Shown here in pieces: positions 11,394 to 37,631 of a stretch of DNA of 64,000 nucleotides. Every line of letters begins with the position of its first letter. Positions within the stretch are counted from its first letter, which is position 1. Where the stretch lies: positions 82,621 through 146,620 of the forward strand of contig CAZHST010000001.1 of the NCBI GenBank assembly GCA_964535215.1, read 5' to 3'. The notes beneath the pieces are model-generated. The model was not told where the DNA came from and made no database searches. It saw nothing but the letters and a program-made list of their open reading frames with translations. The DNA comes from an uncultured bacterium. GTDB lineage: Bacteria; Methylomirabilota; Methylomirabilia; Methylomirabilales; JACQHM01. The translations under genes were made by a program, and so were the position numbers.

Positions 11394-11426
11394 TGGATCT
11401 TGCCGGGAAGAAGGGAGGTGAGGAGC

Positions 11427-11609: not shown

Positions 11610-11651
11610 GGGCCCACCTTTGAACCCTGGTGGTCAAGGAGGTGAGGAAGA

Positions 11652-11834: not shown

Positions 11835-11935
11835 CCTGTGGGAAGGCCGGAGGGGGGTCTTCGTCCCTTTCGGAGACCTCCCTCCGGAAAAGACCATTCC
11901 TGAAGGGCACCAGGCCTTCAGGGGAGGACGAGACG

Positions 11936-12568: not shown

Positions 12569-12610
12569 AGAGGTCTCACCTGTTTGTCCCGGAGCAGGAA
12601 GGGCCCTCGC

Positions 12611-12639
12611 TTGTTGAGCTGAGGGTCTTTTGTTATGAT
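12611..12639 (+). promoter_or_regulatory. Sigma-70-like promoter candidate (TTGTTG-17-TATGAT)
   Basis: Read directly from the sequence. It lies 70 nt upstream of the Rieske gene, which opens the respiratory cluster. Confidence 0.4.
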
Positions 12640-12709
12640 GCTCCCAGAAAAGACCAGGGGTTAGGGGAGAGGGTGGTAAGGGTTTTCAGTCCTTCTGAGG
12701 AGGAGGGCC

Positions 12710-13270
12710 ATGGCGGCAAAGGAGCCTCTTTCGTTCAAATCGGGCGTTGACCCGCAAAGCGTTCCTCCCGGCCGGAGGCGCTTCATCATCCTTCTTTTGA
12801 GTGCGATCACGTCGGCCATTGCGGGGATCCTGGGCATCCCCTTGGCCGGGTTCTTCGCCCTCCCGGCCCTGAAACGGTCAGAGCTTCGGTGGCTGGAGGT
12901 AGGGCCGGTCTCGAGCTTTAAGGAAGGAGAGATCAGGAAGGTCATTGCAAAGCCCCTTGTCGCCCAGGTCTGGCCCCACGAGACCCCCCCGGTGGCCCTC
13001 TACGTCTTGAACCATGGCGGGGGGAGGTTCACCCTCTTCCACATCCACTGCACCCATGTCGGTTGCCCTGTTCAGTGGAACCCCCAGGCGAACCGGTTCT
13101 TCAGCCCCTGCCATGGGGGCGTCTTCGACCGGGATGGTCGGGTCCTGGCCGGCCCACCGCCCCGTCCCCTGGACCGCTACGAGTACAAGATCGAGAAGGG
13201 GGTCCTGTACGCCGGGCGGATCTACAAGGTCAACGAGAAGCTGGAGTTCGCGGGATGGCAGCATACATGA
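12710..13270 (+). CDS. Rieske [2Fe-2S] subunit of a cytochrome bc/b6f-type complex
   Basis: Twin-arginine signal (PGRRRFII). The Rieske boxes are CTHVGCPV and CPCHGGVF. Confidence 0.9.
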   Translation: MAAKEPLSFKSGVDPQSVPPGRRRFIILLLSAITSAIAGILGIPLAGFFALPALKRSELRWLEVGPVSSFKEGEIRKVIAKPLVAQVWPHETPPVALYVLNHGGGRFTLFHIHCTHVGCPVQWNPQANRFFSPCHGGVFDRDGRVLAGPPPRPLDRYEYKIEKGVLYAGRIYKVNEKLEFAGWQHT

Positions 13271-14649
13271 GCAGGGTTTTGGAGTGGCTCCAGGAACGCC
13301 TCGGCACCCGGGAGCAGCTCTTTAAGTTCCTCTACCGACGTCTCCCTGAAGGGACCACGTGGTGGCACACGTTAGGGAGCGCGACCCTCTTTCTGATCCT
13401 CGTCCAGACCCTGACCGGTTTCTTTTTAGCCTTCTACTACGTCCCCTCCCCCGAGCACGCCTACGACAGCCTGATCTACATCCAGGAGGAGCTTCCCTTC
13501 GGGGCCTTCATCCGGGGGCTCCACCACTGGGGGGCAAGCCTCACCGTAGTGGTCGTCTTCCTCCACATGCTTCGGGTCTTCTTCATGGGGGCCTACAAAT
13601 ACCCCCGGGAGCTTTCCTGGGTTGTCGGGGTCTTCCTGTTCCTCCTCATCATGCTCTTCGGCTTCACCGGTTACCTCCTCCCCTGGGACCAGAAGGCCTA
13701 CTGGGCCACGGTGGTCGGGACCCACATCGCCGAAACGGCCCCCCTGATCGGGGAATACCTCCGGCGGATCCTCCAAGGGGGGGTGGAGGTTGGGGCCAGG
13801 ACCCTGGGGCGCTTCTATGCCGCCCACGTCCTGATCCTCCCCGCCGTCCTCTACGCCCTCATCCTGGTCCATCTTTCCATGGTGATCTATCAGGGGATCG
13901 CCCCGACCCCATGGGGAAGGTTCGGCCTCATCAGGAAAGGGGATTACCAGCGGCTCTACGAGGAGTCCAAAGGGAAGGGAGAGACCTTCTTCGAGCATCT
14001 CCTCCGGGATGGGGTTGTCGCCTTCCTCCTCCTCCTCGTCCTCCTCTGGATGGCGGCTTTTTGGAAGGTCCCGATGGAAGAGGTGGCCGACCCCACCAGC
14101 ACCGACTATGTCCCGAGGCCCGAGTGGTACTTCTACTTTCTGTTCGAGCTGTTGTGGCTCTTCCCCGGGAAGTGGATCCCGGTGGCGACCTTCTATATCC
14201 CCCTGGCGGCGGTCCTCCTCCTCCTCTTCCTCCCTTTCTACGACCGGACGCCGGGGAGGAGCCCTCTGAAGCGACCCGTCGCCTCAGGGATCGCCACGGC
14301 GGCCCTTTTCGCCATCGCCTTTTTGACGTACCAAGGGGCAACGGCCCCTCCCCCTCCGAAAGCAGGGACGGCCCTCCCTGAAGAGGTGAAAGCCCTGCCC
14401 CCCGAGCTGGCCAGAGGGAGGGAGGTTTACGAGGCTCAGGGGTGTTCGGCCTGCCACGTGTTGAAGGGGACCGGGAGTGCCGCCGGGCCGGATCTGACAA
14501 GGATCGGGGCGAGAAGGGATGCGGAATGGTTGAAGCGGTTCCTGAAGGACCCGAGCGCAGTGAGGCCCGGCTCGGTCATGCCCCCCTATGGCGAGCTTCC
14601 CGAGGAGGAGCTGGATGCCTTGGCACGATACCTCGCCTCTTTGAAGTAG
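13255..14649 (+). CDS. Cytochrome b (b6 plus subunit IV fused) with a C-terminal monohaem cytochrome c domain
   Basis: ATG 13255 overlaps the Rieske stop. Motifs: HHWGASL..FLHMLRVF, YLLPWDQKAYWAT and PEWYFYFLFELL. C-terminal CSACH. Confidence 0.9.
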   Translation: MAAYMSRVLEWLQERLGTREQLFKFLYRRLPEGTTWWHTLGSATLFLILVQTLTGFFLAFYYVPSPEHAYDSLIYIQEELPFGAFIRGLHHWGASLTVVVVFLHMLRVFFMGAYKYPRELSWVVGVFLFLLIMLFGFTGYLLPWDQKAYWATVVGTHIAETAPLIGEYLRRILQGGVEVGARTLGRFYAAHVLILPAVLYALILVHLSMVIYQGIAPTPWGRFGLIRKGDYQRLYEESKGKGETFFEHLLRDGVVAFLLLLVLLWMAAFWKVPMEEVADPTSTDYVPRPEWYFYFLFELLWLFPGKWIPVATFYIPLAAVLLLLFLPFYDRTPGRSPLKRPVASGIATAALFAIAFLTYQGATAPPPPKAGTALPEEVKALPPELARGREVYEAQGCSACHVLKGTGSAAGPDLTRIGARRDAEWLKRFLKDPSAVRPGSVMPPYGELPEEELDALARYLASLK

Positions 14650-14661
14650 GAGGGCCGAACG

Positions 14662-15315
14662 GTGATGGCGATCAAGTATGGAGTGGGGATCGGGTGGCTT
14701 CTCCTCCTGTTTGTCGGCGGGTCCGTCTTCCCCTTGGGGGCGGAGGAGCAGTACGTCCTCTGGGGCAATGCCCGGAAGGGGCGTCAGGTCTTTCTCGAGA
14801 AAGGCTGTGGGAACTGTCATGCGATCAGGGGGGTGGGGCCGACCCTGGGGCCCGACCTGGGGAGGATCCCTGGTAAACACCTCACCATGACCCAGATGGC
14901 CGGAACCATGTGGAATCACGCCCCTGCCATGAGACAGATGGCGAAGGAGAAGGGGATGACGTGGAAGCCCTTCAAGGGATCGGAGATGCGGGACCTCATC
15001 GCCTTCCTCTACGCCGTCAGCCTCCTGGATGAGCCAGGGGATCCCCGGCGGGGGGAGCGGCTCTTCGTCGAGAAGGGGTGCGCCACCTGCCACAGTGTCA
15101 GGGGGGAAGGGGGCAAGATCGGCCCGGATCTGAAGAAGTGGAAGCAGTACGGCTCCCCCATCCTGTGGGCGGAGCTGATGTGGGAGCACGCCTTAAAGAT
15201 GGAGGAGAAGGTGCGGGAGTTCAGCCTCCGGTGGCCGAAGTTCGAGGGAAACGAGATGGTGGATCTGATCACCTACATCCAGAAGGAACTCGGTCCAAGG
15301 GCCCCCGCGAGGTAA
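14662..15315 (+). CDS. Dihaem class I cytochrome c
   Basis: Signal or anchor helix. Two CxxCH motifs, CGNCH and CATCH, each in a repeated domain. Confidence 0.85.
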   Translation: MMAIKYGVGIGWLLLLFVGGSVFPLGAEEQYVLWGNARKGRQVFLEKGCGNCHAIRGVGPTLGPDLGRIPGKHLTMTQMAGTMWNHAPAMRQMAKEKGMTWKPFKGSEMRDLIAFLYAVSLLDEPGDPRRGERLFVEKGCATCHSVRGEGGKIGPDLKKWKQYGSPILWAELMWEHALKMEEKVREFSLRWPKFEGNEMVDLITYIQKELGPRAPAR

Positions 15316-15368
15316 CAGGATGAGCTGATGCCAACCTATTGCTGCCGGGGATGTTCGGTGGGGGAACG

Positions 15369-16121
15369 ATGAAACGGATACCTGATCAGCTCATACGTTT
15401 GTCAGTTCCGCTGGTCGTGATTGTCCTTGCCCTTGTTGTCGCCAAGCGGTTCCTCACTCCACCGACCTTTGGTCAGTACGGGCACTACCGGGCGGCTGCT
15501 GTTGATGCTGTTACGGCCCAGGAGATTCAGTATGTGGGAGAGCAGGAATGCGCCAACTGCCATGAAGACATTGTGGCGACAAAAACGCGCTCGTATCACA
15601 GAGGCGTTTCCTGTGAGGTCTGCCATGGTCCGGCCAGGGCCCACACGGAGGCTCCCACCGAACACCGACCGCCAGCCCCAAGGGAGAGGGGCTTTTGCCC
15701 GTTGTGCCACAGCTATAACCGTTCAAGGCCTACCGGATTCCCCCAGATCATCCCCCTCACCCATAACCCGGGGAAGCCCTGTATCTCCTGTCACAATCCC
15801 CACGATCCAACGCCCCCCCACGTGCCGAAAGAGTGCGGGGCCTGTCATGGTGACATCGAGAGGACCAAGCTGGTGTCGTCCCATGTCAACCTGCCGTGCA
15901 CGAGATGTCATGAAACTCCTCGCGGGCACAGGGTAAATCCCAGGGTGGTTCGGGCCAACAAGCCGACGAGTCGGGAGTTTTGCGGCGGATGTCATGCGAA
16001 GGAAGCGACAGGTCCCAGGGAAATTCCGCGAATTGACATCGCAACCCATGGGGAGCGGTATGTCTGCTGGGAGTGTCATTACCCTCATCTCCCCGAGACC
16101 TATGCAGGAGCGGCGAGGTGA
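15369..16121 (+). CDS. Membrane-anchored octahaem cytochrome c
   Basis: N-terminal TM helix. Eight CxxCH motifs: CANCH, CEVCH, CPLCH, CISCH, CGACH, CTRCH, CGGCH, CWECH. Confidence 0.85.
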   Translation: MKRIPDQLIRLSVPLVVIVLALVVAKRFLTPPTFGQYGHYRAAAVDAVTAQEIQYVGEQECANCHEDIVATKTRSYHRGVSCEVCHGPARAHTEAPTEHRPPAPRERGFCPLCHSYNRSRPTGFPQIIPLTHNPGKPCISCHNPHDPTPPHVPKECGACHGDIERTKLVSSHVNLPCTRCHETPRGHRVNPRVVRANKPTSREFCGGCHAKEATGPREIPRIDIATHGERYVCWECHYPHLPETYAGAAR

Positions 16122-16921
16122 AAAACACGTACAGTCGAAGGGAATTCCTGAAACGGATGCGCGGGTACCTGAAAAAGATTATGCTGGTTCTGCCGTTCCT
16201 TTCCCCTCCAGGGGTTGGGAGGATGATCATCGGCGGGTCCCGGTCAAGGGAGGCCGAGGCGAGCCAGCCAGGGGACTACGACCCAAGCCAGCACTACTAC
16301 GCTATGGGCATTTACGTGGATAGGTGCATCGGGTGTGGGCTCTGTGTCCAGGCGTGTAAGGTAGAAAACCATGTGCCGCGAGAACCGTTTTTTTTCAGGA
16401 CATGGGTTGAGCGCTACCAGATCCCGGGCGATGGTGACACCCTGGTGGATAGCCCCAATGGGGGATTGGAGGGGTTCCCGGAGCCCTCGGGTCTGAAAAC
16501 AGATGTGCTCCGATCATTCTTTGTGCCGAAACTCTGCAACCACTGCGACAATCCACCCTGCGTCCAGGTGTGCCCTGTGGGGGCGACTTTTAAGACCAGG
16601 GATGGGGTCGTTCTCGTGGATGAGAAGTACTGCATCGGTTGCCGGTATTGCATCCAGGCCTGTCCCTACGGGGCCAGGTACCTCGATCCCAGGACCCGAA
16701 CCGCCGATAAGTGCACCTTTTGTTACCACCGGATCGTCAGGGGGTTAAAGCCGGCTTGCGTTGAGGTCTGTCCTACCCAGGCGCGGGTCTTCGGGGAATT
16801 GGGGGCGCTGAGCAGCCCTCTGGTGAGGTTTCGCCGGATGAACAAGGTCCGGGTGCTCAAGCCGAATCTTAACACCCAGCCGAAGGTGTACTACGCGAAT
16901 CTGGACGGGGAGGTCTCGTAG
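16118..16921 (+). CDS. Tat-exported 4x[4Fe-4S] ferredoxin subunit (NrfC/PsrB/DsrO type)
   Basis: GTG 16118 after AGGAG. Twin-arginine signal SRREFLK. Cluster motifs CIGCGLCVQAC, CNHCDNPPCVQVCP and CIGCRYCIQACP. Confidence 0.85.
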   Translation: MKNTYSRREFLKRMRGYLKKIMLVLPFLSPPGVGRMIIGGSRSREAEASQPGDYDPSQHYYAMGIYVDRCIGCGLCVQACKVENHVPREPFFFRTWVERYQIPGDGDTLVDSPNGGLEGFPEPSGLKTDVLRSFFVPKLCNHCDNPPCVQVCPVGATFKTRDGVVLVDEKYCIGCRYCIQACPYGARYLDPRTRTADKCTFCYHRIVRGLKPACVEVCPTQARVFGELGALSSPLVRFRRMNKVRVLKPNLNTQPKVYYANLDGEVS

Positions 16922-16923
16922 CC

Positions 16924-18183
16924 ATGGAACCTGTGAACGAGCGGTTATGGTCCGCGCTCCAGCAGGTGAGCGGGTATATCTATCCCAATGAGATTGAGCT
17001 CCACTGGGGCCTCCTGATCGTGATCTACCCGTATATTACCGGACTCGTGGCAGGGGCCTTTATCCTGGCCTCCCTGGAGAAGGTCTTCAACGTGAGGGAG
17101 GTGGCGCCTACCTACCGGCTGTCTCTCCTGACCGCCCTTGCGTTCCTGATCGTCGCACCCCTTCCGCTCCTGGCGCACCTCGGGCACCCTGAGCGGGCTT
17201 ATGAGATCTTCTTCACCCCTAACCTCCGATCGGCCATGGCGGCGTTTGGTTTTGTCTATGCCTGGTATCTGATGGCGGTGCTTTTGCTCGAGATCTGGTT
17301 TGAGTACAGGAAGGATCTTATCCTGTGGTCCCATGAGGAGAAGGGGTTGAAGAGGTTCGTTCATAGGCTTATCGCCCTTTTCTCCACGGACATCTCGGAG
17401 GAGGCCCTCCGGTTTGATCAGAAGGCCGCGGAGGTGATCACCATCGTCGGGATCCCGTCCGCCTTCCTGCTTCATGGATACGTGGGCTTTATCTTCGGCT
17501 CCGTTAAGGCCAATCCGTGGTGGAGCAGCGTCCTGATCCCGATCGTGTTCCTCGCCTCCGCCATCGTTTCCGGGATCGCTTTGGTTCTTCTCCTCTACAT
17601 GATCATCACGCTCCTTCGCTCGGAAGAGATCGACATGAGATGCCTCGACAGGCTGGCCGAGTTTCTCCTGTATGCCCTCATCGTTGACTTCTCCCTGGAG
17701 ATCCTGGATTTTATTCACCGGTTGTATGAATCGGAGGAGTCTATCAAGATCCTCTCCAGGATGATCTCCAGCAAACTCTTCATCAGTCTCATCGTCATGC
17801 AGGTCCTTTTGGGAACGTTACTACCGGCGGTTGCCTTGGCCGCCTTTCGATTTTCCCGTCTTCCCGAGGAGCTGAGGAGGCTGGCGTACTTCATCTCTGC
17901 CATCATGATCGAGATTGGTATCTTCAGCACCCGCTGGAACGTGGTGATAGGGGGGCAGCTCTTCTCCAAAAGTCTCAGGGGGCTGACCGTGTACAAGATT
18001 GAGCTGATGGGGTCTGAGGGGCTGTTTATGTCCATGATCCTCCTCACCCTTCCCTTCCTGATCCTTTACGGGTTGCTAAAGGTTTTGCCCCCCTGGCGGG
18101 CTTCTCGCCAAGCCGGGTCTCTTGCCTTACCGGCTGAAATGGAACTATCCTCTGGGCGGGGCGGATCCGGGCCCATGCCCTGA
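16924..18183 (+). CDS. NrfD/PsrC-family quinone-interacting integral membrane subunit
   Basis: 419 aa with about 8-10 TM helices. It directly follows the NrfC-like gene, the typical pairing. Confidence 0.8.
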   Translation: MEPVNERLWSALQQVSGYIYPNEIELHWGLLIVIYPYITGLVAGAFILASLEKVFNVREVAPTYRLSLLTALAFLIVAPLPLLAHLGHPERAYEIFFTPNLRSAMAAFGFVYAWYLMAVLLLEIWFEYRKDLILWSHEEKGLKRFVHRLIALFSTDISEEALRFDQKAAEVITIVGIPSAFLLHGYVGFIFGSVKANPWWSSVLIPIVFLASAIVSGIALVLLLYMIITLLRSEEIDMRCLDRLAEFLLYALIVDFSLEILDFIHRLYESEESIKILSRMISSKLFISLIVMQVLLGTLLPAVALAAFRFSRLPEELRRLAYFISAIMIEIGIFSTRWNVVIGGQLFSKSLRGLTVYKIELMGSEGLFMSMILLTLPFLILYGLLKVLPPWRASRQAGSLALPAEMELSSGRGGSGPMP

Positions 18184-18299
18184 GGGTGGAGGAGAAGGAG
18201 CGGGGGTTCGGTGGTCGGGTTCAAAGGGGACGAGGAGCCTGGCCCCGGGGCTCCCGCGAGGTGAGGGAACCTGTTGTCAGCGCGAAGGAGGGAGAAACG

Positions 18300-18653
18300 A
18301 TGGATCAGAGACGGAGTCTGGTGGTGGTCTTTGTGGTCGTGTTCCTGGCCTTCGGTTTGGCCCTGGGATCGGCCCTGGCCCAGCAGAAACCCAAGATGCC
18401 GGCCGATTTCTCCTTTGAGAAAGGGAAAGGAAGCCCGGGGACAGTCACCTTCAGCCACGAGAAGCACTTCGACAAGAACCTGAAATGTACCGAGTGCCAC
18501 GTCAAGGTCTTCAAGATGAAGAAGGGGACCTCGGGGAAGCTCACGATGGCGGCCATGAACGAGGGGAAGTTCTGCGGGGCCTGCCATAACGGGAGCAAGG
18601 CGTTCAGCACGAAGGACACGGCGGGTTGCACCCGGTGCCATGTGAAAGGGTAA
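18300..18653 (+). CDS. Trihaem c7/c3-type periplasmic cytochrome
   Basis: ATG 18300 after GAAGGAGGGAG. Signal peptide. Motifs CTECH, CGACH and CTRCH, plus VTFSHEKH. Confidence 0.85.
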   Translation: MDQRRSLVVVFVVVFLAFGLALGSALAQQKPKMPADFSFEKGKGSPGTVTFSHEKHFDKNLKCTECHVKVFKMKKGTSGKLTMAAMNEGKFCGACHNGSKAFSTKDTAGCTRCHVKG

Positions 18654-20086
18654 AGGCTGAAAGGGGTGTAGCTTCCTGGGGGGAGGGCCCTTTCAGCGAC
18701 CTTCTCTCTTTGGTCGTTTTCCTCCTCATGGGAATCCTTCCGGCGTTTGCTGAAGGGTCCCCCCCCTCCTCCGAGGACTGCCTCGCCTGCCACAGCGACC
18801 GGGAGCTGTCCAAAGCAGGGCCAGGGGGGCGCCTCATCTCCCTTTACGTTGATCAGGCCTCCTTCCAAGGATCAGTCCACGGCTCCCTTCCCTGCGTCCG
18901 GTGCCACACCGATGCAACGGCGATCCCCCATCCCGAGACCTTGAAAAAGGTCCGCTGTAAGCGTTGTCACGAGGTGATCCTCTCCGGGGCCCACGCTGGC
19001 CAAAGGGGGAGGGGGCCGACCTGCGCGGCCTGCCATGGTTCCCATGGGATCCGACCGGCCCTGGAAGCGGAGCCCGGGATCTGCCGAACCTGCCACGGGG
19101 CCGTTGTCAAGGTGTATGGGGAGAGCGTCCATGGCCGGGGCTTGGCCCGGGGGGAGCAGGAGGTCGCCTCGTGCCACCACTGCCACGGTCCAGCCCACGA
19201 GGTGAAGAAGGCGCGGGACCCTGGCTCCCCCGTCTATCCCTTGAACCTCCCCCGGACCTGCGGGGTCTGTCACGGCGATCCCGAGCTCGCCAAGCGGCAC
19301 GGCATCCCCGTGGCGAACGCGTACCAGCTGTACATGGACTCGATCCACGGCCGGGCCCTGGCGAAAAGCGGCCTCCTGGTTGCAGCCAACTGCTCGAGCT
19401 GCCACGGGTTTCATGAGATCAAACCAAAGGACGATCCAGCTTCTAAGGTCTACCGGACGAACATCCCGGGCACCTGCGGGGCCTGCCACGCCGGCATCCT
19501 GGATGACTACTTCGAGGGAGTTCATGGGGAGGCGGTCAGGGCCGGAAAGCTGGCGGCCCCGGTCTGCATGGACTGCCACACGGCCCACGAGATCGCCCGG
19601 GTCGAGACGGTGGCCTGGCAACTGGAGATTGTCAGGGAGTGCGGGACCTGTCATCAGGAGTCTTTGAGGACCTACCGGGACACCTTCCACGGGCAGGTGA
19701 CGGCCTTGGGCTTTACCCGCGTGGCCCGCTGCTCCGATTGCCACGGGGCCCACCGGATCCTCCCCGCCTCCAATCCCCGGTCTTCCATCGCGCCGGCAAA
19801 CCTGGTCGCCACCTGCCGGAGGTGTCACCCAAGGGCGAATGAGAACTTTGTCCGCTTCTCCCCCCATGCCGACCCGACGAACAAAGACCGGAACCCGGGC
19901 CTCTACTATGCTGCCCGCTTTATGAACATCCTCATGATCGGGGTCTTCGCCTTCTTCGGTCTCCATACCTCCCTGTGGCTCTCCCGCTCCCTTCTCGAGC
20001 GGGCAAGGCCGAGGAGGCCGCCGGAGGAGCCTGAGGAGCCGGACCAGAAGGAAGGGGAGGGAGGGGATGGAGCGAAAGAGCCTTGA
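18626..20086 (+). CDS. Multihaem cytochrome c (13 CxxCH) with a C-terminal TM helix
   Basis: Thirteen CxxCH motifs counted in the translation. C-terminal helix MNILMIGVFAFFGL. Start uncertain; ATG 18626 overlaps the previous gene by 28 nt. Confidence 0.85.
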   Translation: MHPVPCERVKAERGVASWGEGPFSDLLSLVVFLLMGILPAFAEGSPPSSEDCLACHSDRELSKAGPGGRLISLYVDQASFQGSVHGSLPCVRCHTDATAIPHPETLKKVRCKRCHEVILSGAHAGQRGRGPTCAACHGSHGIRPALEAEPGICRTCHGAVVKVYGESVHGRGLARGEQEVASCHHCHGPAHEVKKARDPGSPVYPLNLPRTCGVCHGDPELAKRHGIPVANAYQLYMDSIHGRALAKSGLLVAANCSSCHGFHEIKPKDDPASKVYRTNIPGTCGACHAGILDDYFEGVHGEAVRAGKLAAPVCMDCHTAHEIARVETVAWQLEIVRECGTCHQESLRTYRDTFHGQVTALGFTRVARCSDCHGAHRILPASNPRSSIAPANLVATCRRCHPRANENFVRFSPHADPTNKDRNPGLYYAARFMNILMIGVFAFFGLHTSLWLSRSLLERARPRRPPEEPEEPDQKEGEGGDGAKEP

Positions 20087-20906
20087 CCAGGCCCCGCGAT
20101 ACCACCTCAGGATCCACCTCTACCACCGGATCCTGCACGGCCTCCTGATGACGAGCTTTCTGGGGCTGGCCGCCACGGGGATGCCCCTTCGGTTCAACCG
20201 GGCGGCCTGGGCTGTTGGCTTCGCCCACACCATCGGAGGCTTCGGGGCGATCCTCTTCTTCCACAAGACCTTTGCCGTCCTCCTGACCCTCTGCTTCCTC
20301 CTCCATCTCGGGTATGTCTTCCACCTGGCCTTTGTCCGAGGGGAGGTCGGCGTCTTCTGGGGCCCCTCCTCCATGGTCCCCCAGCCCAAGGACTTCCTGG
20401 ACATGTTCCAGCACTTCCGGTGGTTCTTCGGGATGGGGCCGAAGCCCCGATTCGGCCGTTTCACCTACTGGGAGAAGTTCGACTACTGGGCCGTCTTCTG
20501 GGGGATGGCCATCATCGGCACCTCAGGCTATGTGATGTGGTTCTCCTCGTTCTTTGCCAGGTTCCTCCCGGGGTGGGTCTTCAACATCGCCCTTCTGATC
20601 CACGCCGACGAGGCCCTTTTGGCAGTCTGGTTCATCTTCGCCATCCACTTCTTCAACAGTCACCTCCGCCCCGGCAAGTTCCCTCTGGATCTCGTCATCT
20701 TCACCGGAAGGGTGAGCGAGGAGGAGCTTCAGGAGGAGCGTCCGGCAGAGTATGAACGCCTGGTCAAGGAGGGGGGCGTAAAGGCCGTTTGGGTCGATCC
20801 CCCGCCGCTGTGGCTGAAGAACTTCGGGAGGATCGTCGGGTTCACCGTGGTCTTTACCGGCTTCCTCCTGTTCGGCCTGACCCTCCTGGCCTTCTTGAAC
20901 GAATGA
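20067..20906 (+). CDS. FdnI/HydC-type dihaem cytochrome b membrane protein
   Basis: Four to five TM helices with conserved His residues (HRILHGLL, FHKTF, HADEAL, HFFNSH). Architecture of the Ni/Fe-hydrogenase b-type cytochrome family. Confidence 0.75.
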   Translation: MERKSLDQAPRYHLRIHLYHRILHGLLMTSFLGLAATGMPLRFNRAAWAVGFAHTIGGFGAILFFHKTFAVLLTLCFLLHLGYVFHLAFVRGEVGVFWGPSSMVPQPKDFLDMFQHFRWFFGMGPKPRFGRFTYWEKFDYWAVFWGMAIIGTSGYVMWFSSFFARFLPGWVFNIALLIHADEALLAVWFIFAIHFFNSHLRPGKFPLDLVIFTGRVSEEELQEERPAEYERLVKEGGVKAVWVDPPPLWLKNFGRIVGFTVVFTGFLLFGLTLLAFLNE

Positions 20907-21979
20907 CGATGGGTGCGAAATATTTCAGGGGATGGCTAGGGGGGGGAGCCGCCATTGTTGTCCTCCTGCTGGCGGTGGCCTCCTCGGGTGCAGAACCGCT
21001 TCCGTCGGAGGTGGAGTTTTGCCTTTCCTGCCATAGCGAGAAGACCTTGGAGCTGACCCTGAGGAGCGGGGAGAGGCGCTCCCTCTTCGTGGACGGGAAG
21101 GTCTTTGCCCGCTCCATCCACGGGGACAAGCTCTCCTGTACCGATTGCCACCGGGACATCGAGGCCTATCCCCACCCGGAGAGGGTGTTCAGGAACCTGC
21201 GCGAGTTTACCCTGGCCTACTACGAGAGCTGCAAGGGATGCCACTTCGACAACTACACGAAGACCCTGGACAGCGTGCACTACCGGGTCCTCGCCAGGGG
21301 GGACCTGAGGGCCCCTCTCTGCGTTGATTGCCATGGGGCCCACGACGTGACTGACCCTGACCTGCCCAGATCCAGGATCTCCAGGACCTGTGCGACGTGC
21401 CACGGGGAGGTGTACCAGCGGTACGCCGGGAGCGTCCACGGCAAGGCCCTCCTCCAGGAGGGGAACGTGGATGTCCCCGTCTGCACCGACTGCCACCGCT
21501 CCCACGATATCGAGGACCCCCGGACCGCCTCCTTCCGTTTGAAGACCCCCGAGCTCTGCGCCACATGCCACACCAACGGGGAGCTCATGAGGAGGTACGG
21601 CCTCTCGACCAACGTCCTCCAGACATACCTGAAGGATTTTCACGGGATGACGGCGTCCTTCTACAGGAGAGAGCAGATCACGCCGGCTGCCTTCACCGCC
21701 GTCTGCACCGATTGCCACGGCGTTCATGAGATCTTACCGGTCAAGGATCCAAGATCCGCTGTGATGAAGGCGAACCTGGTCAGGGTCTGCCGGAAGTGCC
21801 ACCCGGAGGCCACAGAGAATTTCCCGGCGGCCTGGCTCTCCCACTACGAGCCGAGCCCCGAGAAGGCCCCGCTGGTTTACTACACGAAGCTCTTCTACCA
21901 GTTCTTCATCCCCTTCGTCGTCTTGGGGTTGGTTCTCCAGATCCTCCTCCACCTCTGGCGGGTTGTCGTCAACCGGTGA
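20903..21979 (+). CDS. Multihaem cytochrome c (9 CxxCH) with a C-terminal TM helix
   Basis: ATGA overlap with the previous stop. Signal peptide and nine CxxCH motifs. Its C-terminus is homologous to that of the 13-haem protein (CR[RK]CHP..[NT]ENF). Confidence 0.85.
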   Translation: MTMGAKYFRGWLGGGAAIVVLLLAVASSGAEPLPSEVEFCLSCHSEKTLELTLRSGERRSLFVDGKVFARSIHGDKLSCTDCHRDIEAYPHPERVFRNLREFTLAYYESCKGCHFDNYTKTLDSVHYRVLARGDLRAPLCVDCHGAHDVTDPDLPRSRISRTCATCHGEVYQRYAGSVHGKALLQEGNVDVPVCTDCHRSHDIEDPRTASFRLKTPELCATCHTNGELMRRYGLSTNVLQTYLKDFHGMTASFYRREQITPAAFTAVCTDCHGVHEILPVKDPRSAVMKANLVRVCRKCHPEATENFPAAWLSHYEPSPEKAPLVYYTKLFYQFFIPFVVLGLVLQILLHLWRVVVNR

Positions 21980-21988
21980 ATTTGGGAG

Positions 21989-22741
21989 ATGAGGCGGGAA
22001 ACGTCGGGATACGTGATCCGGTTCAGCGTGAGGCAGCGGGTCGAGCACCTCCTCATCATGGTGCTCTTCCTCATCCTCGCCTTAACGGGTCTCCCCCAGA
22101 AGTTCTTCGAGGCGGGGTGGGCCCAGGGGTTGATCCTCCAGCTGGGCGGGATTGATCGGGTCCGCTGGTTCCACCGCACCGCCGGCCTCCTCTTCACCCT
22201 GGTGGCCATCGAGCATCTAGGGGTCATCCTCTCGTTGGCCGCGCTGAAGCGGATCAAGCTTAGCATGATCCCGGCCAAGAAGGACTTTCAGGATGCCATT
22301 CTTATGCTACGATATTATCTGGGGCTCTCGGAGGAGCAGGCCCAGTTCGACCGGTATGACTACCGGCAGAAGTTTGAGTACTGGGGCCTGGTCTTCGGCG
22401 GGGTGGTCATGATCCTCACCGGGTTTCTCCTCTACTTCCCGACCTTCTTCACCCGCTTCCTCCCGGGTGAGGTGATTCCGGCGGCGAAGGTGGCCCACTC
22501 GAGCGAGGGGCTCCTGGCGTTCCTGGTGGTGATCATCTGGCACGTCTACAACGCCCACCTGAACCCCGACGTCTTCCCCTTCGACGCCTCGATCTTCACC
22601 GGGAGGATCAGCGAGGAGCGGATGCGGAAGGAGCATCCCTTGGAGCACGCCCGTCTTGCCGCAAAGGGGGAAGCGGCGGCCTTCAAGGAGGAGACGGCCG
22701 AGAGCCTTTCCCGGGAAACCAACGGCGATAAACCACCTTAG
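21989..22741 (+). CDS. FdnI/HydC-type dihaem cytochrome b membrane protein (second copy)
   Basis: Paralog of 20067..20906 ([27 protein letters not shown]). It follows the 9-haem cytochrome. Confidence 0.75.
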
Positions 22742-22750
22742 CGTCATCGG

Positions 22751-24643
22751 ATGAACCCCTTCCGTTTCTTCAAGAGGAGCCTTCGGGGGCGGATCATCCT
22801 CCTGGTCGGCCTGGGGATGGTGGCCCTGGCAGGGATCCTCCGACTCTCCAGCCTGTGGGAGAGCCGGCTCCTCTTCGATCGGGCCTTAAGCGAACGTCAG
22901 CGTCTCGCCCAGGCGTTGGCTGACCATCTGGACTACATCCTCAAGTCGAACCTGATCATCCTCCAGGATGTGGCCCTGGGAGCCAGGGAAGGCCTCGGGA
23001 GGGGTGATCTGAAATCCGTGAAAGCGGCCCTCCGGGAGGCCTACCTTCGCTCCCTCTTCACCGAAGGGGTCTTCCTCCTGGACCGGAGGGGTCGGATCGT
23101 CTGGATCGAACCCCAGCGCCCTTCCCGGATGCACGAGGACTTCTCCTCCCTCCCCCCGGTCCGCCGGGCCCTGGAGGCCGGAAGGCCGGAGGTCTCGGAC
23201 CTTGTCATCAATGGGGGGAAACGGATCTATGCCGTGGTGCCGATCCGGGACTGGGGCGGGGAGCTGGTGGGGGCCGTGGGGGGGACCCTCGACCCCGGGA
23301 GCCCCCGCTTCCGCTCCCTCCTCCACCCGATCCGGCTCGGCGACACGACCTATCTGGAACTCGTGGACGGCCACGGGATCGTCCTGGCCTCGACGAAGGC
23401 AGGGCGGGCTTTCCTGGAGAGTGACCACGGCCGCTTCCTGGCCGGTTTGATCCAGGAGAGGAGATCGGTGGTCGGGACCTGCCACAGTTGCCACGAAGGG
23501 GAGGGGCTTTCGGGGCGGGAGAGGGAGGTCATCGCCTTTGCCCCGTTGACCGCTGCCCCCTGGGGGATCAGCATCCGTCAGGCCGAAAAGGAGGCCCTGG
23601 CTCCGGCCTTCACAATAGAGCGGCGCCTCTTTTTCCTTGGCTCCCTGACGATCCTTCTGGCGCTCCTCTTCGCCTGGGGAGTGGCCAGGAGTGTGACGAA
23701 GCCCTTAGGCGTCCTGACCCAAGCCGCCCAACGGATTGCCAGCGGGGACCTGGATGAGCCGATCCCGCCCCTAGGCGAGGACGAGATCGGCCGCCTGGCC
23801 CGATCCTTCGATCAGATGCGGGCGGCGCTCCAGGCCTCTCTGGAGGCGATCTCGGAAGGGAAGCGGGAGCTGGAGAGGAGGGTGCAGGAGCGGACGAGGG
23901 AGCTGGAGAGCCTCTATCAGGAGCTTCGGAGGAAAGAGGAGCTTCGGGGGGAGCTGTTAAAGAAGGTGATCGTGGCCCAGGAGGAGGAACGGAGGCGGAT
24001 CGCCCGGGAGCTCCACGACGAAACCAGTCAGGCCCTGGCCGCCCTCCTCCTGTCCGTCGAGACGGGCATCCAAAGCCCTCCCCAGGAGGTCAGGGAGAGG
24101 CTCCACCGGATAAAGGCCCTGGCCGATCGGACCCTGGACAGCATTCACCGCCTGATCTTCGATCTCCGCCCCTCCGTCCTGGACGATCTCGGCCTCGTTT
24201 CAGCCCTCCGGTGGTCCGCCGAGAGTCGCCTGGAGCCTATGGGGATTGACCTCTCCTTTGAGGTCATCGGATCGGAGCGGAGGCTTCCACCCGAGATCGA
24301 GACGGCCCTCTTCAGGATCGGCCAGGAGGCCATCACCAACATCGCGAGGCATGCCGAAGCCGAGGGGGTCAGGATCACGGTCGAGTTCGGCGAGGAGGTC
24401 GTCCGCCTCCAGGTCGAGGACGACGGGAAGGGGTTTGACCCTGAAGAGGTGACCAGGTCTGTCAAAGGGGCTCGGGGGTTGGGGCTCCTCGGGATGAGGG
24501 AGCGGACGGCCCTCTTGGAGGGGACCCTCACCATCCAGTCCGAGCCGGGAGGGGGGACGCGGGTGACTGTGGAGGTCCCCCTGCCGGGGCTTCGGACCGG
24601 GACGCCAGGCGCCCATGAAGATCAGGGTTCTCATCGCCGATGA
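22751..24643 (+). CDS. Sensor histidine kinase (HAMP, HisKA_3, HATPase) with a CxxCH motif in the periplasmic sensor domain
   Basis: Two TM helices flank a sensor domain of about 270 aa that contains VVGTCHSCHEG. HAMP domain. The H-box is RIARELHDETSQ (NarX/LiaS type). G-boxes present. Confidence 0.9.
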   Translation: MNPFRFFKRSLRGRIILLVGLGMVALAGILRLSSLWESRLLFDRALSERQRLAQALADHLDYILKSNLIILQDVALGAREGLGRGDLKSVKAALREAYLRSLFTEGVFLLDRRGRIVWIEPQRPSRMHEDFSSLPPVRRALEAGRPEVSDLVINGGKRIYAVVPIRDWGGELVGAVGGTLDPGSPRFRSLLHPIRLGDTTYLELVDGHGIVLASTKAGRAFLESDHGRFLAGLIQERRSVVGTCHSCHEGEGLSGREREVIAFAPLTAAPWGISIRQAEKEALAPAFTIERRLFFLGSLTILLALLFAWGVARSVTKPLGVLTQAAQRIASGDLDEPIPPLGEDEIGRLARSFDQMRAALQASLEAISEGKRELERRVQERTRELESLYQELRRKEELRGELLKKVIVAQEEERRRIARELHDETSQALAALLLSVETGIQSPPQEVRERLHRIKALADRTLDSIHRLIFDLRPSVLDDLGLVSALRWSAESRLEPMGIDLSFEVIGSERRLPPEIETALFRIGQEAITNIARHAEAEGVRITVEFGEEVVRLQVEDDGKGFDPEEVTRSVKGARGLGLLGMRERTALLEGTLTIQSEPGGGTRVTVEVPLPGLRTGTPGAHEDQGSHRR

Positions 24644-25262
24644 CCATGCCCTCTTCCGGGAGGGGATCAGGATCCTCCTCTCCGGCTATGACGATCTGGA
24701 GGTGGTGGGGGAGGCGGCCGACGGGAGGGAGGCCATCGAGCGGGCAAGGGAATGCCGCCCCGACATCGTCCTGATGGACATCGCCATGCCGGGGTTGGGG
24801 GGGCTGGAGGCGACCCTGGAGCTGAAGAAACTCCTTCCCGGGGTGAAGATCCTGATCCTCACCCAATACGACAACCGGGAGTACCTCTACCGCTTCTTCA
24901 AGGCCGGGGTTTCGGGTTACGTGTTGAAGCGGGCGGCGGGGACCGAACTGGTCGCCGCCATCAGGGCCGTGTATCAGGGGGGAATCTTCCTCCACCCGGA
25001 GGTCGCCCCCGCCGTTGTCGAAGGGTATCTGGGGGGGCTCAGGCCTTCCGAACAGGAGGATGCCTATGAGACCTTGACGGATCGGGAGAAGCAGGTCTTG
25101 AAGCTGGTCGCCGAGGGGAAGACCAACAAGGAGATCGCCGGCATCCTGGGGATCAGCGTGAAGACTGCCATGGGCCACCGGGCGAACCTGATGGAGAAGC
25201 TCGGCATCCATAACAGGGCCGAGCTGGTCAAGTTCGCCCTTCGGCGGGGGATCATCGAGTAA
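24615..25262 (+). CDS. NarL/FixJ-family response regulator (REC plus LuxR HTH)
   Basis: IRVLIADDH...VLMDIAMPG receiver domain. C-terminal LTDREKQVLKLVAEGKTNKEIA HTH motif. Confidence 0.9.
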   Translation: MKIRVLIADDHALFREGIRILLSGYDDLEVVGEAADGREAIERARECRPDIVLMDIAMPGLGGLEATLELKKLLPGVKILILTQYDNREYLYRFFKAGVSGYVLKRAAGTELVAAIRAVYQGGIFLHPEVAPAVVEGYLGGLRPSEQEDAYETLTDREKQVLKLVAEGKTNKEIAGILGISVKTAMGHRANLMEKLGIHNRAELVKFALRRGIIE

Positions 25263-25563
25263 CGGGTCGCCCGAGGGGTTCCCCAACGGGTCCCGTCGCG
25301 CGAAAAAACCTTTGATCTTTGAGAGAATTGGGGTAGAGTTAAAAACGGTGTTCACCCAGAGGATCCGGAGAGTGGGGTAGCGTCGCCAAGATTCGATCTG
25401 TTCACGCCTGGAAGCGCCTTTCTGGACGCTCGCTCGCCCAGGAGGGCGCTTTCTCTTTTCCTGAGGAGATCGTCTTCTTTGGAGGGGGGAGGGCCAGGAA
25501 ACAGGGAAAAGAGCGGCGGAGTTCTACGGGGGCTTGGGTGCCGGCGTCGAAGGAGGACGGGCG

Positions 25564-26253
25564 ATGGCCGAGGATGTCTTGGAGCTGATTGCGAACACTT
25601 CGGATGGTGTTTTCGCCGTTCGCAACGACCACCGGATCATCTTGTGGAATAAAGGGGCCGAAGCCCTGCTCGGGTTCCGGGCCAAGGAGGTTCTCGGGAG
25701 GTATTGCTATGACGTGCTCGGCGGCATTGATCAATCGCGCCACCCGATCTGTTACAAAGGTTGTCAAGCCCTGGTCGCAGCCGGCCGGGGGAAGCTGGTC
25801 CCCACCCGGAACCTGGCGACGCGAACGAAGATCGGGCAGGAGATCTGGTTGAACATGACCTCCATCGTGATTCCCTCCAAGCGAAATGATCTCGTGATCC
25901 TCGTCCACATCTTCCGGGACTTTACCCGCCAGAAGGAGGTGGAGCAGTTCGTTCACCGTCTCCTCTCCAGCGTGGCCAAGCCCTCCTGGTGTGAGGGGTT
26001 CGAGGCTCTGCCCAACCCGCCTCCTTCCCATGGTCTTCCCGAGGATCTGACCTCGCGGGAGGTACAGGTCCTCCAGCTTCTGGCATTAGGGACGCCGACC
26101 AAAGCCATCGCCCAGAGGCTTTGCATCAGTCCCTCGACCGTCAAGAACCATATCCAGAACATCCTCAGCAAGCTGAAGGTACACAGCCGGGTTCAAGCCG
26201 TTGCGGTAGCCTTCCGGTACAACCTTATTCAGGGGACCGATTTCGTAGCATAG
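25564..26253 (+). CDS. PAS-domain LuxR-family transcriptional regulator with a conserved Cys cluster (paralog A)
   Basis: ATG after GAAGGAGGA. PAS-like IANTSDGVFAV..RIILWN..AE.LLGF.A.EVLGR.CY.VLG; LuxR HTH LTSREVQVLQLLALGTPTKAIA. Paralog of 56511..57203. Confidence 0.8.
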   Translation: MAEDVLELIANTSDGVFAVRNDHRIILWNKGAEALLGFRAKEVLGRYCYDVLGGIDQSRHPICYKGCQALVAAGRGKLVPTRNLATRTKIGQEIWLNMTSIVIPSKRNDLVILVHIFRDFTRQKEVEQFVHRLLSSVAKPSWCEGFEALPNPPPSHGLPEDLTSREVQVLQLLALGTPTKAIAQRLCISPSTVKNHIQNILSKLKVHSRVQAVAVAFRYNLIQGTDFVA

Positions 26254-26336
26254 GCCGGGGGGCCAGGGGAAAATGCGGCCCTCCTACCTTCCCTGGGAAG
26301 AGATGACACGCGGAAAGGTCGAGAGGAGGGAAAGAG

Positions 26337-27785
26337 ATGGTGGGGAATGAGAATCCTCAAGGCGTTCGCACGGTGAAGGCGGGGGATCTCAAGCCCCCGT
26401 GGGAGATCCGGGAACTTCCCGCACCCCCTGCGCTGTCCCTGAAGGGGCTCTTCCAATGGGCCGGTCCGGCGATCATCCTGGGGGCCCTTTCCGTGGGCGG
26501 CTTTGAGGCCTACCATGCCGGGTATATGGGGGCCAAGCTCTTCGTGGGCATCTTCTGGCTCTACTGGCTCTCCTGCATCGCCCAGCTGTTCCTGAACCAG
26601 GAGATCGCCCGTTACACCATGGCGACGGGGGAGACGGTCCTCCAGGGATTCACCCGCCTGCGTCCGGCCAAATTCTGGGCCTGGTTCTCGGCCCTCTTCT
26701 GCTGGCTTCAGGTAGCCTGGCCCGCCTGGATCACGGGCGCCGCCGCCGGGGCCGCCGCGGTCTTTGGGTTCGGGACCTGGCAGGCCTGGTCCGTCGTGGC
26801 CCTGGTTGCGGTGTTTATCTGCTTCGCGGCCAGCCGCTACGTGTACAACACGTTGGAGATCATCATGTACGCCGCATTCGTTGTGGCGAACATCGGGCTG
26901 GCCTTCTTCACGGTGCTGATGAGCACCCCCCAGGCGGCGCTGGAAACGGCCAGAGGCTGGGTGAGCGTGGGCTCCTTCCCTGCCGGCATCACCCTGAGCA
27001 TGATCGGGCCTTTCCTCCTGCAGCCGGCCGGCGGGTTCTGGAACTTCTGGCACACCTACTGGGTGCGGGAAAAAGGCATGGGGATGGGCAGGTACTTTGG
27101 CCGGGTCACAGGGTTGGTGGCCAAGCCCGAGGAGATCAGCAGGACCGGGTACATCTTCGATGCGGACAATCCGGTTGAGTTGGCTAAGTTTAAACGATGG
27201 CTCACGCTCAACAATCTCACACTGGCCATCTTCTTCGTGATCCTGGGAGGGGTGTTCTTCACCTTCTTTGCTGGCCTGGCCGGGTATTCGGCGAAAACTC
27301 TCTACAATATGGATGTCCCCTCCGGCTGGAAGATCGCCATTGTGCTGTCGGAGATCTTCAAATCGGCGTACGGGCAGATCGGGTTCGCCTTCTTCGGGAT
27401 CATCCTGATCTTTGCCCTCTTCGACTCCCAGTTTTCCATCTACGACGGGATCGCCCGGATGTGGGCCGATACCTTCTTCCTGGAGCATCCGACGGTTTTC
27501 GGGAAACGCCCCTACCGGTTCTGGTACTTCGTCTTGCTGGGGGCCCTGGTCGTCTACGGGTTGATCGGCGTCTGGCTGAAGACCCCTTACATCATCTGGC
27601 TGATCGCCAACTGGCTGGGGACGGCAGCCCAGGCCTACGTGACCTTCATGGTTATTCTCCTGAACCGAAAACTGTTGCCGGAGAAGATCCGACCAAAAGG
27701 GGTCTCGTTGGCCGTGAACCTCCTCTGGGGGACGATCCTCCTTGTGTATTTCGTCGCCTGGACCATCAAGGATCGGCCGTTCTGA
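26337..27785 (+). CDS. Nramp-related transporter family protein (paralog 1 of 3)
   Basis: 482 aa, 11-12 TM helices. Shares a YWVREKGMGMG loop motif and overall collinearity with 61440..62894 and 62897..64000. Confidence 0.65.
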   Translation: MVGNENPQGVRTVKAGDLKPPWEIRELPAPPALSLKGLFQWAGPAIILGALSVGGFEAYHAGYMGAKLFVGIFWLYWLSCIAQLFLNQEIARYTMATGETVLQGFTRLRPAKFWAWFSALFCWLQVAWPAWITGAAAGAAAVFGFGTWQAWSVVALVAVFICFAASRYVYNTLEIIMYAAFVVANIGLAFFTVLMSTPQAALETARGWVSVGSFPAGITLSMIGPFLLQPAGGFWNFWHTYWVREKGMGMGRYFGRVTGLVAKPEEISRTGYIFDADNPVELAKFKRWLTLNNLTLAIFFVILGGVFFTFFAGLAGYSAKTLYNMDVPSGWKIAIVLSEIFKSAYGQIGFAFFGIILIFALFDSQFSIYDGIARMWADTFFLEHPTVFGKRPYRFWYFVLLGALVVYGLIGVWLKTPYIIWLIANWLGTAAQAYVTFMVILLNRKLLPEKIRPKGVSLAVNLLWGTILLVYFVAWTIKDRPF

Positions 27786-30974: not shown

Positions 30975-30995
30975 GACGCTCTCCCTCTTAAAGGA

Positions 30996-32466: not shown

Positions 32467-32499
32467 GATCCTGCCTCCTTTGGCGTGAGCCTTCAGCTT

Positions 32500-37618: not shown

Positions 37619-37631
37619 GCTGATCACCCTC

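Follow-up and report, generated by a model that had tools for sequence, protein, structure and literature searches.

A putative split-gene variant of the CbcL/MtoC/MtrH family and a candidate sister module with its own haem-c two-component system in a Methylomirabilota genome

The closest described relative of the genes considered here is CbcL (GSU0274) of Geobacter sulfurreducens, for which the source is reportedly Zacharoff et al. 2016. We compared it with four genes at 18626-22741 on the + strand of a 64,000-nucleotide (nt) stretch of DNA from an uncultured bacterium of the Methylomirabilota (assembly GCA_964535215.1, contig CAZHST010000001.1, positions 82,621 to 146,620), hereafter the window. 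The genes encode two multihaem cytochromes c, A_c and B_c, each followed by a membrane-bound cytochrome b, A_b and B_b, respectively. CbcL has 619 residues, of which residues 30-279 form a periplasmic 9-haem domain, and contains six transmembrane (TM) helices (PMC9129911); one candidate ligand histidine lies in each of TM1-3 and two lie in TM5 (10.1101/2021.04.15.440034). The CbcL/MtoC/MtrH family is defined by a periplasmic c domain with 3-23 CX2CH motifs (Zhong and Shi 2018, PMC6295460), and PpcA-type c7 cytochromes are documented partners of CbcL (PMC9129911; PMC13591261). A further Geobacter enzyme, CbcBA (GSU0593-0594), is encoded by two genes: CbcA has 7 haems and a C-terminal anchor with a histidine, and CbcB, annotated as thiosulfate-reductase-like, has 4 TM helices (10.1101/2021.04.15.440034). 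In formate dehydrogenase-N of E. coli (1kqf), FdnI is a four-helix dihaem cytochrome b, and the periplasmic electron-transfer subunit FdnH adds one C-terminal TM helix.

The four window genes are closely packed in the order A_c, A_b, B_c, B_b. A_c (18626-20086) is a 486-residue open reading frame (ORF) for a 13-haem periplasmic cytochrome c with a signal peptide, a C-terminal TM anchor and a short cytoplasmic tail. A_b (20067-20906; 279 residues), a predicted CbcL-type dihaem cytochrome b with 5 TM helices and no CxxCH, overlaps the last 20 nt of A_c in a different reading frame, and a purine-rich ribosome-binding site precedes its ATG. The stop codon of A_b shares ATGA with the start codon of B_c (20903-21979), a 9-haem periplasmic cytochrome c that likewise has a signal peptide and a C-terminal TM anchor. 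The B_c ORF spans 20789-21979; the most likely start is ATG 20903, which yields 358 residues, as called in public assemblies. B_b (21989-22741; 250 residues) begins 10 nt after B_c and is a predicted FdnI-fold dihaem cytochrome b with 4 TM helices and no CxxCH. The exact proteins of the pairs recur in other public assemblies, and A_b falls in one 90% cluster with a protein of 'candidate division NC10 bacterium'.

An earlier note on this DNA, made from its letters alone, had described two consecutive pairs of an anchored multihaem cytochrome c, with 13 and 9 CxxCH, and a dihaem-b-type protein of about 250-280 residues. The CxxCH counts, the homologous ends of the c subunits and TM prediction bore out the paired architecture. 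The b proteins, at 279 and 250 residues and with four ligand-histidine positions invariant in both families, also matched the description.

Pair A, pair B and the CbcL/MtoC/MtrH family

A search of 1.84 billion representative proteins with A_b yielded 2195 relatives. Most of the best 150 of these were proteins of 540-1126 residues in which the match lay in the C-terminal part; in the 623-residue protein P0123, for example, the b domain (residues 352-617) was 56% identical to A_b. The fused relatives carry 6-22 CxxCH in their N-terminal part and then a helix with the sequence ..LLIGTFAFFG(V/L)H(T/S)xLW... The C-terminal anchor of A_c, ILMIGVFAFFGLHTSLWLSRS, has the same motif as this linker helix. 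According to TM prediction, the anchor spans residues ~428-453 (nt ~19907-19984) and includes the conserved His447 (nt 19964-19966); its motif, FFGLHTSLWLSRS, is common to the helix that joins the c and b domains of fused CbcL-type proteins.

As a CbcL reference we used P0295, a Desulfuromonadales proxy for the CbcL-clade b domain. P0295 and its relatives match machine-read fragments of GSU0274 (PMC9129911 supplement), among them ..GPKPTFERW(T)YWEKFDF(L)AVFWGMAF.., which found partial proteins of Geobacteraceae/Desulfuromonadales and not the 619-residue protein itself. Judged by sequence, these proteins are plainly CbcL orthologs. A_b aligned with P0295 end to end, with 41% identity over 278 residues (E = 7e-63), and B_b was 33% identical to it over 236 residues (E = 1e-29). 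Homology to CbcL-type proteins, on which the earlier note had staked its interpretation, was thus found in both b proteins. On the c side, the last 154 residues of A_c, including the anchor, were 32% identical (E = 1e-26) to a Desulfuromonadales CbcL fragment comprising the C-terminal part of the c domain and the anchor. The c domains of A_c and B_c are homologous to those of fused members of the CbcL/MtoC/MtrH family, and their 13 and 9 CxxCH lie within the family's range of 3-23.

We then placed the b subunits in a neighbour-joining tree of 70 b domains, rooted on FdnI and calculated from 248 columns with 200 bootstraps; it contained no named MtoC or MtrH sequences. A_b fell in a clade with all of the fused proteins and the Desulfuromonadales CbcL proteins (75% bootstrap). 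Eleven split A_b sequences, that of the window included, formed one clade (99%), with three other unfused sequences outside it. B_b and its relatives formed a clade of their own (80%) outside the CbcL-type clade. A third clade (99.5%) comprised the fused second modules of Acidobacteriota and of an Elusimicrobia metagenome-assembled genome (MAG).

The topology of pair A also fits the CbcL pattern: the anchor helix of A_c, with His447, takes the place of TM1, and the five helices of A_b, with His24, His66, His179 and His194, bring the total to six. Pair B, with 1+4 helices, falls short of six and keeps the histidines. Pair A therefore resembles CbcL in its N-terminal periplasmic multihaem c domain, in a single linking TM helix with a conserved histidine (FFGxH(T/S)xLW), in an FdnI/HydC-like dihaem b core with a histidine in each of the next two helices and two in the fifth, in a sixth, C-terminal helix, in the motif GPKPxFxRxTYWEKFD(Y/F), and in having a PpcA-like c7 cytochrome as its likely partner. 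It differs from CbcL in being encoded by two genes rather than as one polypeptide and in having 13 haems in A_c as opposed to 9. Pair B differs from CbcL in lacking the sixth helix, in its own anchor motif and in its separate clade. The setting of the locus differs as well, in that cbcL is reported to be constitutive in Geobacter (10.1101/2021.04.15.440034), whereas a haem-c kinase and a NarL-type regulator follow the genes here.

Together, these data suggest that pair A is a CbcL/MtoC/MtrH-family module in which the gene is divided at the cytoplasmic loop that connects TM1 to TM2. Pair B (9 haems and a 250-residue b, 1+4 TM) appears to represent a distinct, highly conserved sister family that was never seen fused. 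The earlier note's split-CbcL reading was correct in kind (A_b is 41% identical to the CbcL-clade b domain) and had the pairs reversed. It had proposed the 9-haem pair as the unfused CbcL; B_b, however, is only 33% identical to the CbcL b domain, pair B has 5 TM helices in total, and its b subunits form a separate clade. It had taken the 13-haem pair for an expanded paralog; from its identities (41% to P0295, 56% to P0123), its six TM helices and its clade, pair A would itself be the split CbcL-type module.

A_c and B_c are paralogous (32-34% identity, E = 5e-46). They end alike, in CRRCHPRANENF and CRKCHPEATENF, respectively, each followed by one hydrophobic helix. In B_c this anchor lies at nt ~21902-21958, with a conserved histidine at nt 21950-21952, and its motif, LVLQILLH(L/I/V)WR, was kept in 8 of the 8 homologs read, all of which had 9 haems. 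According to the alignment, the c subunits are built on one common scaffold, from which B_c lacks a block of ~110 residues carrying four haems. The 13-haem form of A_c contains a ~50-residue insert with two extra haems that is common to Rokubacteria/Methylomirabilota proteins; the count of 13 is specific to this type of protein, the other cassette homologs and the Acidobacteriota proteins having 11 haems. Histidines total 31 for the 13 haems of A_c and 20 for the 9 haems of B_c. The non-motif histidines would be sufficient for bis-histidine ligation of all haems, which is consistent with a function of A_c and B_c in electron transfer rather than catalysis.

A_b and B_b are 38% identical (E = 9e-55). 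The Pfam model PF01292 matched B_b (E = 2.3e-14) and gave A_b 28 bits, which is below the cut-off. B_b aligned with FdnI (1kqf_C) with E = 3.3e-9, and its His20, His62, His170 and His185 were in register with the four haem ligands of FdnI. These residues are invariant in the B_b family as the pairs His20/His185 and His62/His170, together with His76 and His190; the A_b family has invariant His24/His194 (cytoplasmic-side haem), His66/His179 (periplasmic-side haem) and His199. The extra C-terminal helix of A_b, absent from B_b, is predicted at residues 259-277. FdnI was the sole significant match in the PDB to the AlphaFold2 model of A_b (predicted local distance difference test score, pLDDT, 75.7; TM-score 0.79) and to the AlphaFold model of B_b (pLDDT 61.2; TM-score 0.58). 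The B_b family is strongly conserved: the best 120 matches were 66-95% identical and all comprised 202-307 residues, so that none is fused. In profile comparisons (hhalign), the B family matched the A/CbcL profile with E = 4e-40 and FdnI with E = 6e-13. Both b proteins thus lie nearer to b domains of the CbcL type than to FdnI.

Of the two-gene systems, CbcBA (Joshi, Chan and Bond 2021) resembles the window pairs in its gene order, c then b, and in the histidine-bearing C-terminal TM anchor of its c subunit; its b subunit has four TM helices, as does B_b. It differs in its PhsC-like b subunit with three ligand histidines, in the 7 haems of CbcA, and in being controlled by a sigma-54 regulator (BccR) instead of the NarL-type two-component system found here. 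The PDB entry 28pb ('Cytochrome c', 278 residues) matched the N-terminal haem region of A_c (E = 3.6e-9) and of B_c (E = 4.8e-6). This entry is probably G. sulfurreducens CbcA, because PMC13591261 cites a 2026 CbcA structure (Antunes 2026), printed as 'PDB 2BPB', and because a 28pb homolog has a CbcBA-like context in contig L095. A large protein search with 140 aligned residues of 28pb found no identical protein, the best match being the 63%-identical homolog in L095. The latter adjoins a 217-residue cytochrome b that matches the PhsC model (E = 1.5e-31), in a CbcBA-like cluster that also holds a divergent set of kinase, sigma-54 regulator and M54 peptidase. The 28pb-homologous gene (L095, 6001-7707) appears to be frameshifted in that assembly. 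The CbcB-like b of L095 showed no similarity to B_b (E = 0.4) and marginal similarity to A_b (E = 8e-4), and the PhsC model matched neither A_b nor B_b. The window pairs thus appear to share the design of the c subunit, and not the b subunit, with CbcBA.

Formate dehydrogenase-N resembles the window pairs in its four-helix dihaem b with the same ligand histidines, position by position in the case of B_b, and in the additional C-terminal helix of FdnH, to which the anchors of A_c and B_c correspond. It differs in that the partner of FdnI is an iron-sulfur protein with a molybdoenzyme rather than a multihaem cytochrome c; all b domains in the tree, moreover, are ~20% identical to FdnI. Electron flow in CbcL is presumed to be opposite to that in FdnH/FdnI. 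On this evidence, neither A_b nor B_b appears to group with FdnI or CbcB.

Conservation, distribution and the associated kinase

Nine genomic contexts of pair B were informative. In eight of these (the window, L003, L005, L006, L091, L093, L094 and L096), A_c, A_b, B_c and B_b occurred in this order and were followed by genes for a dCache-HAMP-HisKA_3 kinase and a receiver-GerE regulator. In the ninth, L092 from a Nitrospinota MAG, B_c, B_b, the kinase and the regulator occurred without pair A. The pairs had been called tandem duplicated in the earlier note. They are paralogous, as described above, but a recent tandem duplication was ruled out, as the paralogs are only 32-38% identical and the cassette has been kept in at least eight independent contigs. 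Because it is conserved in 8 of 9 contexts, the tandem is old and maintained.

In the window, the sensor histidine kinase (22751-24643, + strand) comprises TM1, a periplasmic dCache_1 domain, TM2, HAMP, HisKA_3 and HATPase domains. Its predicted partner, a NarL/LuxR-type response regulator (24615-25262, + strand), has a receiver and a GerE helix-turn-helix domain, according to NCBIfam and Pfam matches. The kinase follows pair B in every context that was read far enough, and the position of the regulator is the same in all cassettes. The two-component system is likely to belong to pair B, because L092 has pair B, the kinase and the regulator without pair A. The periplasmic domain of the kinase contains the motif CHSCH (residues 244-248, nt 23480-23494). 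The pattern C-H-x-C-H was kept in 8 of 8 cassette homologs, as were the TM helices. Motifs of this kind attach c-type haem, and the kinase, with its invariant periplasmic CxxCH, is therefore probably a sensor that uses haem c to detect redox state or a ligand.

The Geobacter chemoreceptors GSU0582 and GSU0935 contain a single CxxCH within a periplasmic PAS/Cache-like sensor domain. The window kinase differs from them in its HisKA_3 output, its NarL-type partner and its fixed position beside a respiratory module. As a whole, the locus appears to combine a variant of the CbcL/MtoC/MtrH kind encoded by split genes with a sister module that has a haem-c two-component system of its own; it counts as a variant, and not as an ordinary family member, because c and b are on separate genes in both pairs.

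To survey the split form, we scanned species-representative genomes for a pattern, which gave at least 600 matches, and read the best 80 loci (L008-L087), to which the following counts refer. Pair A was split in 74 loci. An anchored cytochrome c was encoded directly upstream in 71 (59 with 11 haems, 5 with 13), and an ImcH-like gene lay within 3.5 kb in 38. In 25 loci, mostly of Acidobacteriaceae, a second, fused module was found nearby; it combines 11 or 13 haems with a b domain and belongs to a separate clade. No true B_b, and thus no cassette with pair B, was found among these best 80 of at least 600 matches. The hosts were mostly Acidobacteriota, and also included Rokubacteria/Methylomirabilota, Binatia-type MAGs, Verrucomicrobia and relatives of Burkholderiales. 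As a side observation from the same loci, genes for the two kinds of quinol oxidase known from Geobacter, CbcL-type and ImcH-like, often lie close together in other phyla.

In a published survey, membership of the CbcL/MtoC/MtrH family required haem-c motifs and TM helices in one polypeptide, and CbcL and ImcH homologs numbered 2 versus 19 in Acidobacteria and 0 versus 1 in Rokubacteria (PMC6295460). The split form probably accounts for the gap between CbcL and ImcH counts in Acidobacteria. The literature that we searched contained no description of a split CbcL, nor of CbcL in NC10, Rokubacteria or Acidobacteria. CbcL-type enzymes serve as genomic markers for extracellular electron transfer. 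As the split form is common in the Acidobacteria and Rokubacteria groups, marker-based estimates of electron transfer between the quinone pool and the periplasm are probably too low for these phyla, which are abundant in soil and groundwater. In addition, a CbcL that naturally consists of two subunits should be easier to express and to dissect than the fusion.

Candidate electron path and competing explanations

Our favoured reading, with moderate confidence, is that pairs A and B are paralogous quinol:cytochrome c oxidoreductases of the CbcL kind, each composed of two subunits. The Sec-exported multihaem cytochrome c of each pair would reside in the periplasm, tethered to the membrane by its C-terminal helix. 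By analogy with the helix of FdnH on FdnI, this anchor would pack on the FdnI-fold dihaem b to form a complex. Two stacked b haems and, beyond them, the chain of c haems would carry electrons between the menaquinone pool and the periplasm. The cytoplasmic-side haem would be held by His24/194 in A_b and His20/185 in B_b, and the periplasmic-side haem by His66/179 and His62/170, respectively. The c haems may then pass electrons to soluble carriers such as the PpcA-like, c7-type trihaem periplasmic cytochrome encoded just upstream (18300-18653, + strand). The latter has a signal peptide and 3 CxxCH, and its ORF opens at 18186 with a likely start at ATG 18300, supported by a ribosome-binding site; it matched PF14522 (E = 3.7e-18) and the c7 trihaem domain model TIGR04257 (76 bits, above the cut-off). 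Elsewhere, a c7 gene lies upstream of pair A at a distance of 0.6-1.9 kb in L003, L005 and L091 and directly before it in five Rokubacteria/Methylomirabilota loci.

Within the same scheme, pair B would be an older sister module lacking the sixth helix, and the haem-c Cache kinase and NarL-type regulator would probably sense the periplasmic redox state or a haem ligand and set expression of the modules. Were quinone bound on the cytoplasmic face, as it is in FdnI, the oxidation of quinol would draw on the membrane potential, which would suit low-potential acceptors. The presence of two tandem modules under a redox-sensing kinase suggests two working ranges, with pairs A and B operating at different potentials, as do ImcH, CbcL and CbcBA in Geobacter.

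Several points weigh against this reading. The family includes MtoC, a proposed quinone reducer in Fe(II) oxidizers (PMC6295460). Family membership was judged from Desulfuromonadales homologs, machine-read fragments and unnamed fused representatives rather than from authentic GSU0274, MtoC, MtrH or CbcB. Support for the deep nodes of the tree was only 75-80%, by a distance method, and the model of B_b is of low confidence (pLDDT 61). A search of PDB sequences with the sensor domain of the kinase found no meaningful solved relative, and no outer-membrane conduit gene was recognized among the window genes scanned.

The strongest alternative, although we regard it as unlikely, is that the same complexes run mainly in reverse, from periplasmic cytochromes supplied by an external or periplasmic donor such as Fe(II) to menaquinone, as proposed for MtoC. 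Members of the CbcL/MtoC/MtrH family occur in both metal reducers and metal oxidizers, and no sequence feature tells the direction (PMC6295460). The FdnI fold serves as a quinone reductase in formate dehydrogenase-N (1kqf), and the string of genes that holds the pairs includes a cytochrome b/c gene of the bc type and other quinone modules. By contrast, CbcL, the only genetically characterized family member, is a quinol oxidase (10.1101/2021.04.15.440034; PMC13591261). The locus is accompanied, as in Geobacter, by genes for a PpcA-like c7 and an ImcH-like protein, and no conduit for Fe(II) oxidation (MtoAB, Cyc2) was seen in the window.

It is considerably less probable that pairs A and B are parts of one assembly, either a heteromeric supercomplex or a redox loop in which the two modules respectively oxidize quinol and reduce quinone at opposite faces of the membrane. 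Such an assembly would be consistent with pair A preceding pair B in 8 of the 9 informative contexts and with genes that overlap or nearly abut. However, the Nitrospinota MAG has pair B, the kinase and the regulator and lacks pair A, none of the 74 split loci among the best 80 has pair B alongside pair A, and each pair has a full set of parts.

A still more remote reading, to which we attach very little weight, is that the b genes encode gamma subunits of a formate dehydrogenase, a hydrogenase or a thiosulfate-reductase/CbcBA-type enzyme and that the cytochrome c genes are unrelated neighbours. Homologs of B_b are publicly annotated as 'formate dehydrogenase gamma subunit', and the best NCBIfam match is TIGR01583; FdnI is the only solved structural relative, and 28pb, probably CbcA, matches both c proteins. 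The TIGR01583 scores, however, were 68.6 bits for B_b and 23.7 for A_b, both below the cut-off of 115.85. HyaC models gave weak matches to B_b (E = 1.7e-4 and 3.5e-3) and none to A_b, and HyaC was not recruited by a hidden Markov model of the b domain. Among the genes adjoining the pairs, which encode cytochromes c, the kinase and the regulator, there was no FdnGH- or HyaAB-type gene, that is, no formate dehydrogenase or membrane-bound, cytochrome-b-linked hydrogenase subunit. NiFe hydrogenase genes were seen only ~7 kb downstream, on the opposite strand, beside FlpD- and HdrA-type genes. The partner that supplies the anchor helix is the cytochrome c itself, and the PhsC-like b beside the 28pb homolog in L095 is not a convincing relative of B_b (E = 0.4) or A_b (E = 8e-4). 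The grouping with formate dehydrogenase or hydrogenase gamma subunits against which the earlier note had cautioned was thus not observed, given the ~20% identity to FdnI, the hhalign results and the lack of adjoining catalytic subunits.

Finally, although a one-base change could fuse A_c and A_b across their 20-nt overlap in different frames, it is scarcely credible that pair A is a fused cbcL divided by a frameshift error in assembly or sequencing, or one that is decaying into a pseudogene, as the same split recurs in independent genomes in 74 of the best 80 loci, 71 of them with an anchored cytochrome c directly upstream, as the eleven split A_b sequences form a clade with 99% bootstrap, and as A_b has a ribosome-binding site at its ATG and the exact proteins occur in other assemblies.

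Returning to the reading of two CbcL-type quinol oxidases, we offer one tentative extension, which we consider improbable in its full form. Pair B, the haem-c kinase and the regulator may constitute a self-contained redox-sensing respiratory unit, in which the covalently attached periplasmic haem of the kinase would report how reduced the periplasmic cytochromes are, perhaps directly from B_c, and the kinase would switch expression between two CbcL-type quinol oxidases of different potentials. To our knowledge, the basis of the potential-dependent choice between ImcH and CbcL in Geobacter is still unexplained. A unit of this kind would be a hard-wired genetic answer to potential-dependent pathway choice. 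The tie of the sister module to a haem-c kinase makes the choice among quinol oxidases according to redox potential directly testable.

Neighbouring genes

Both pairs, the kinase and the regulator are contained in an unbroken string of + strand genes at 13063-25262. Before the c7 gene, at 13063-18183, the string encodes a cytochrome b/b6-cytochrome c fusion, a dihaem c, an 8-haem c, an NrfC-like iron-sulfur protein and an NrfD-like membrane protein, with almost no gaps. The cytochrome b/b6, which is fused to a monohaem c, is ExtP-like (234 bits, below the cut-off), and the iron-sulfur protein is NrfC/TtrB-like; these genes resemble two more modules that interact with quinones. A Rieske gene was absent from the window genes scanned; Rieske/cytochrome b genes occur near the cassette in L003, L006, L091, L093 and L096. 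A scan of 11000-27000 for promoters and terminators gave nothing above the shuffled expectation.

The earlier note had also pointed to an ImcH-like protein at 47992-49491, and this identification held. ImcH is defined as a protein of ~495-519 residues with three N-terminal TM helices, a CX3CH beside the third and then six CX2CH (PMC6295460). The window protein has 499 residues, predicted TM helices at ~19-37, 52-70 and 98-116, CGELCH at 131 and six CxxCH; its N-terminal region matched NapC/NirT (E = 3.9e-11). The gene is divergent from - strand genes at 43874-47417 for a HAMP-HisKA kinase, an M54 peptidase and a sigma-54 response regulator, a trio that is also present beside the CbcBA-like cluster of L095. 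Downstream, at 49785-52233, are genes for a 658-residue NapH/NosR-like polyferredoxin membrane protein (Fer4_5) and a small protein with a PCYCGC motif. A PCYCGC protein is also encoded just upstream of pair A in L096.

The NiFe hydrogenase genes mentioned above belong to a - strand set at 28957-41755, which encodes the large and small subunits, an FlpD-like protein, a HycI protease, an HdrA-like flavoprotein, two CCG-domain (HdrD/DsrK-like) proteins, an ETF alpha subunit and a second NrfC/NrfD pair. These are electron-transfer enzymes of cytoplasmic type, and the set resembles the Hdr/Mvh and DsrMK-like complexes of anaerobes.

Two further gene types are present in two copies each. One-component regulators with PAS and GerE (LuxR-type) domains, encoded at 25534-26253 and 56511-57203, are 64% identical. 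Multi-pass membrane proteins of ~480 residues, encoded at 26337-27785 and 61440-62894, have no Pfam match and are 26% identical to each other (E = 3e-27). One copy of the regulator and one of the membrane protein lie directly after the response regulator of the cassette.

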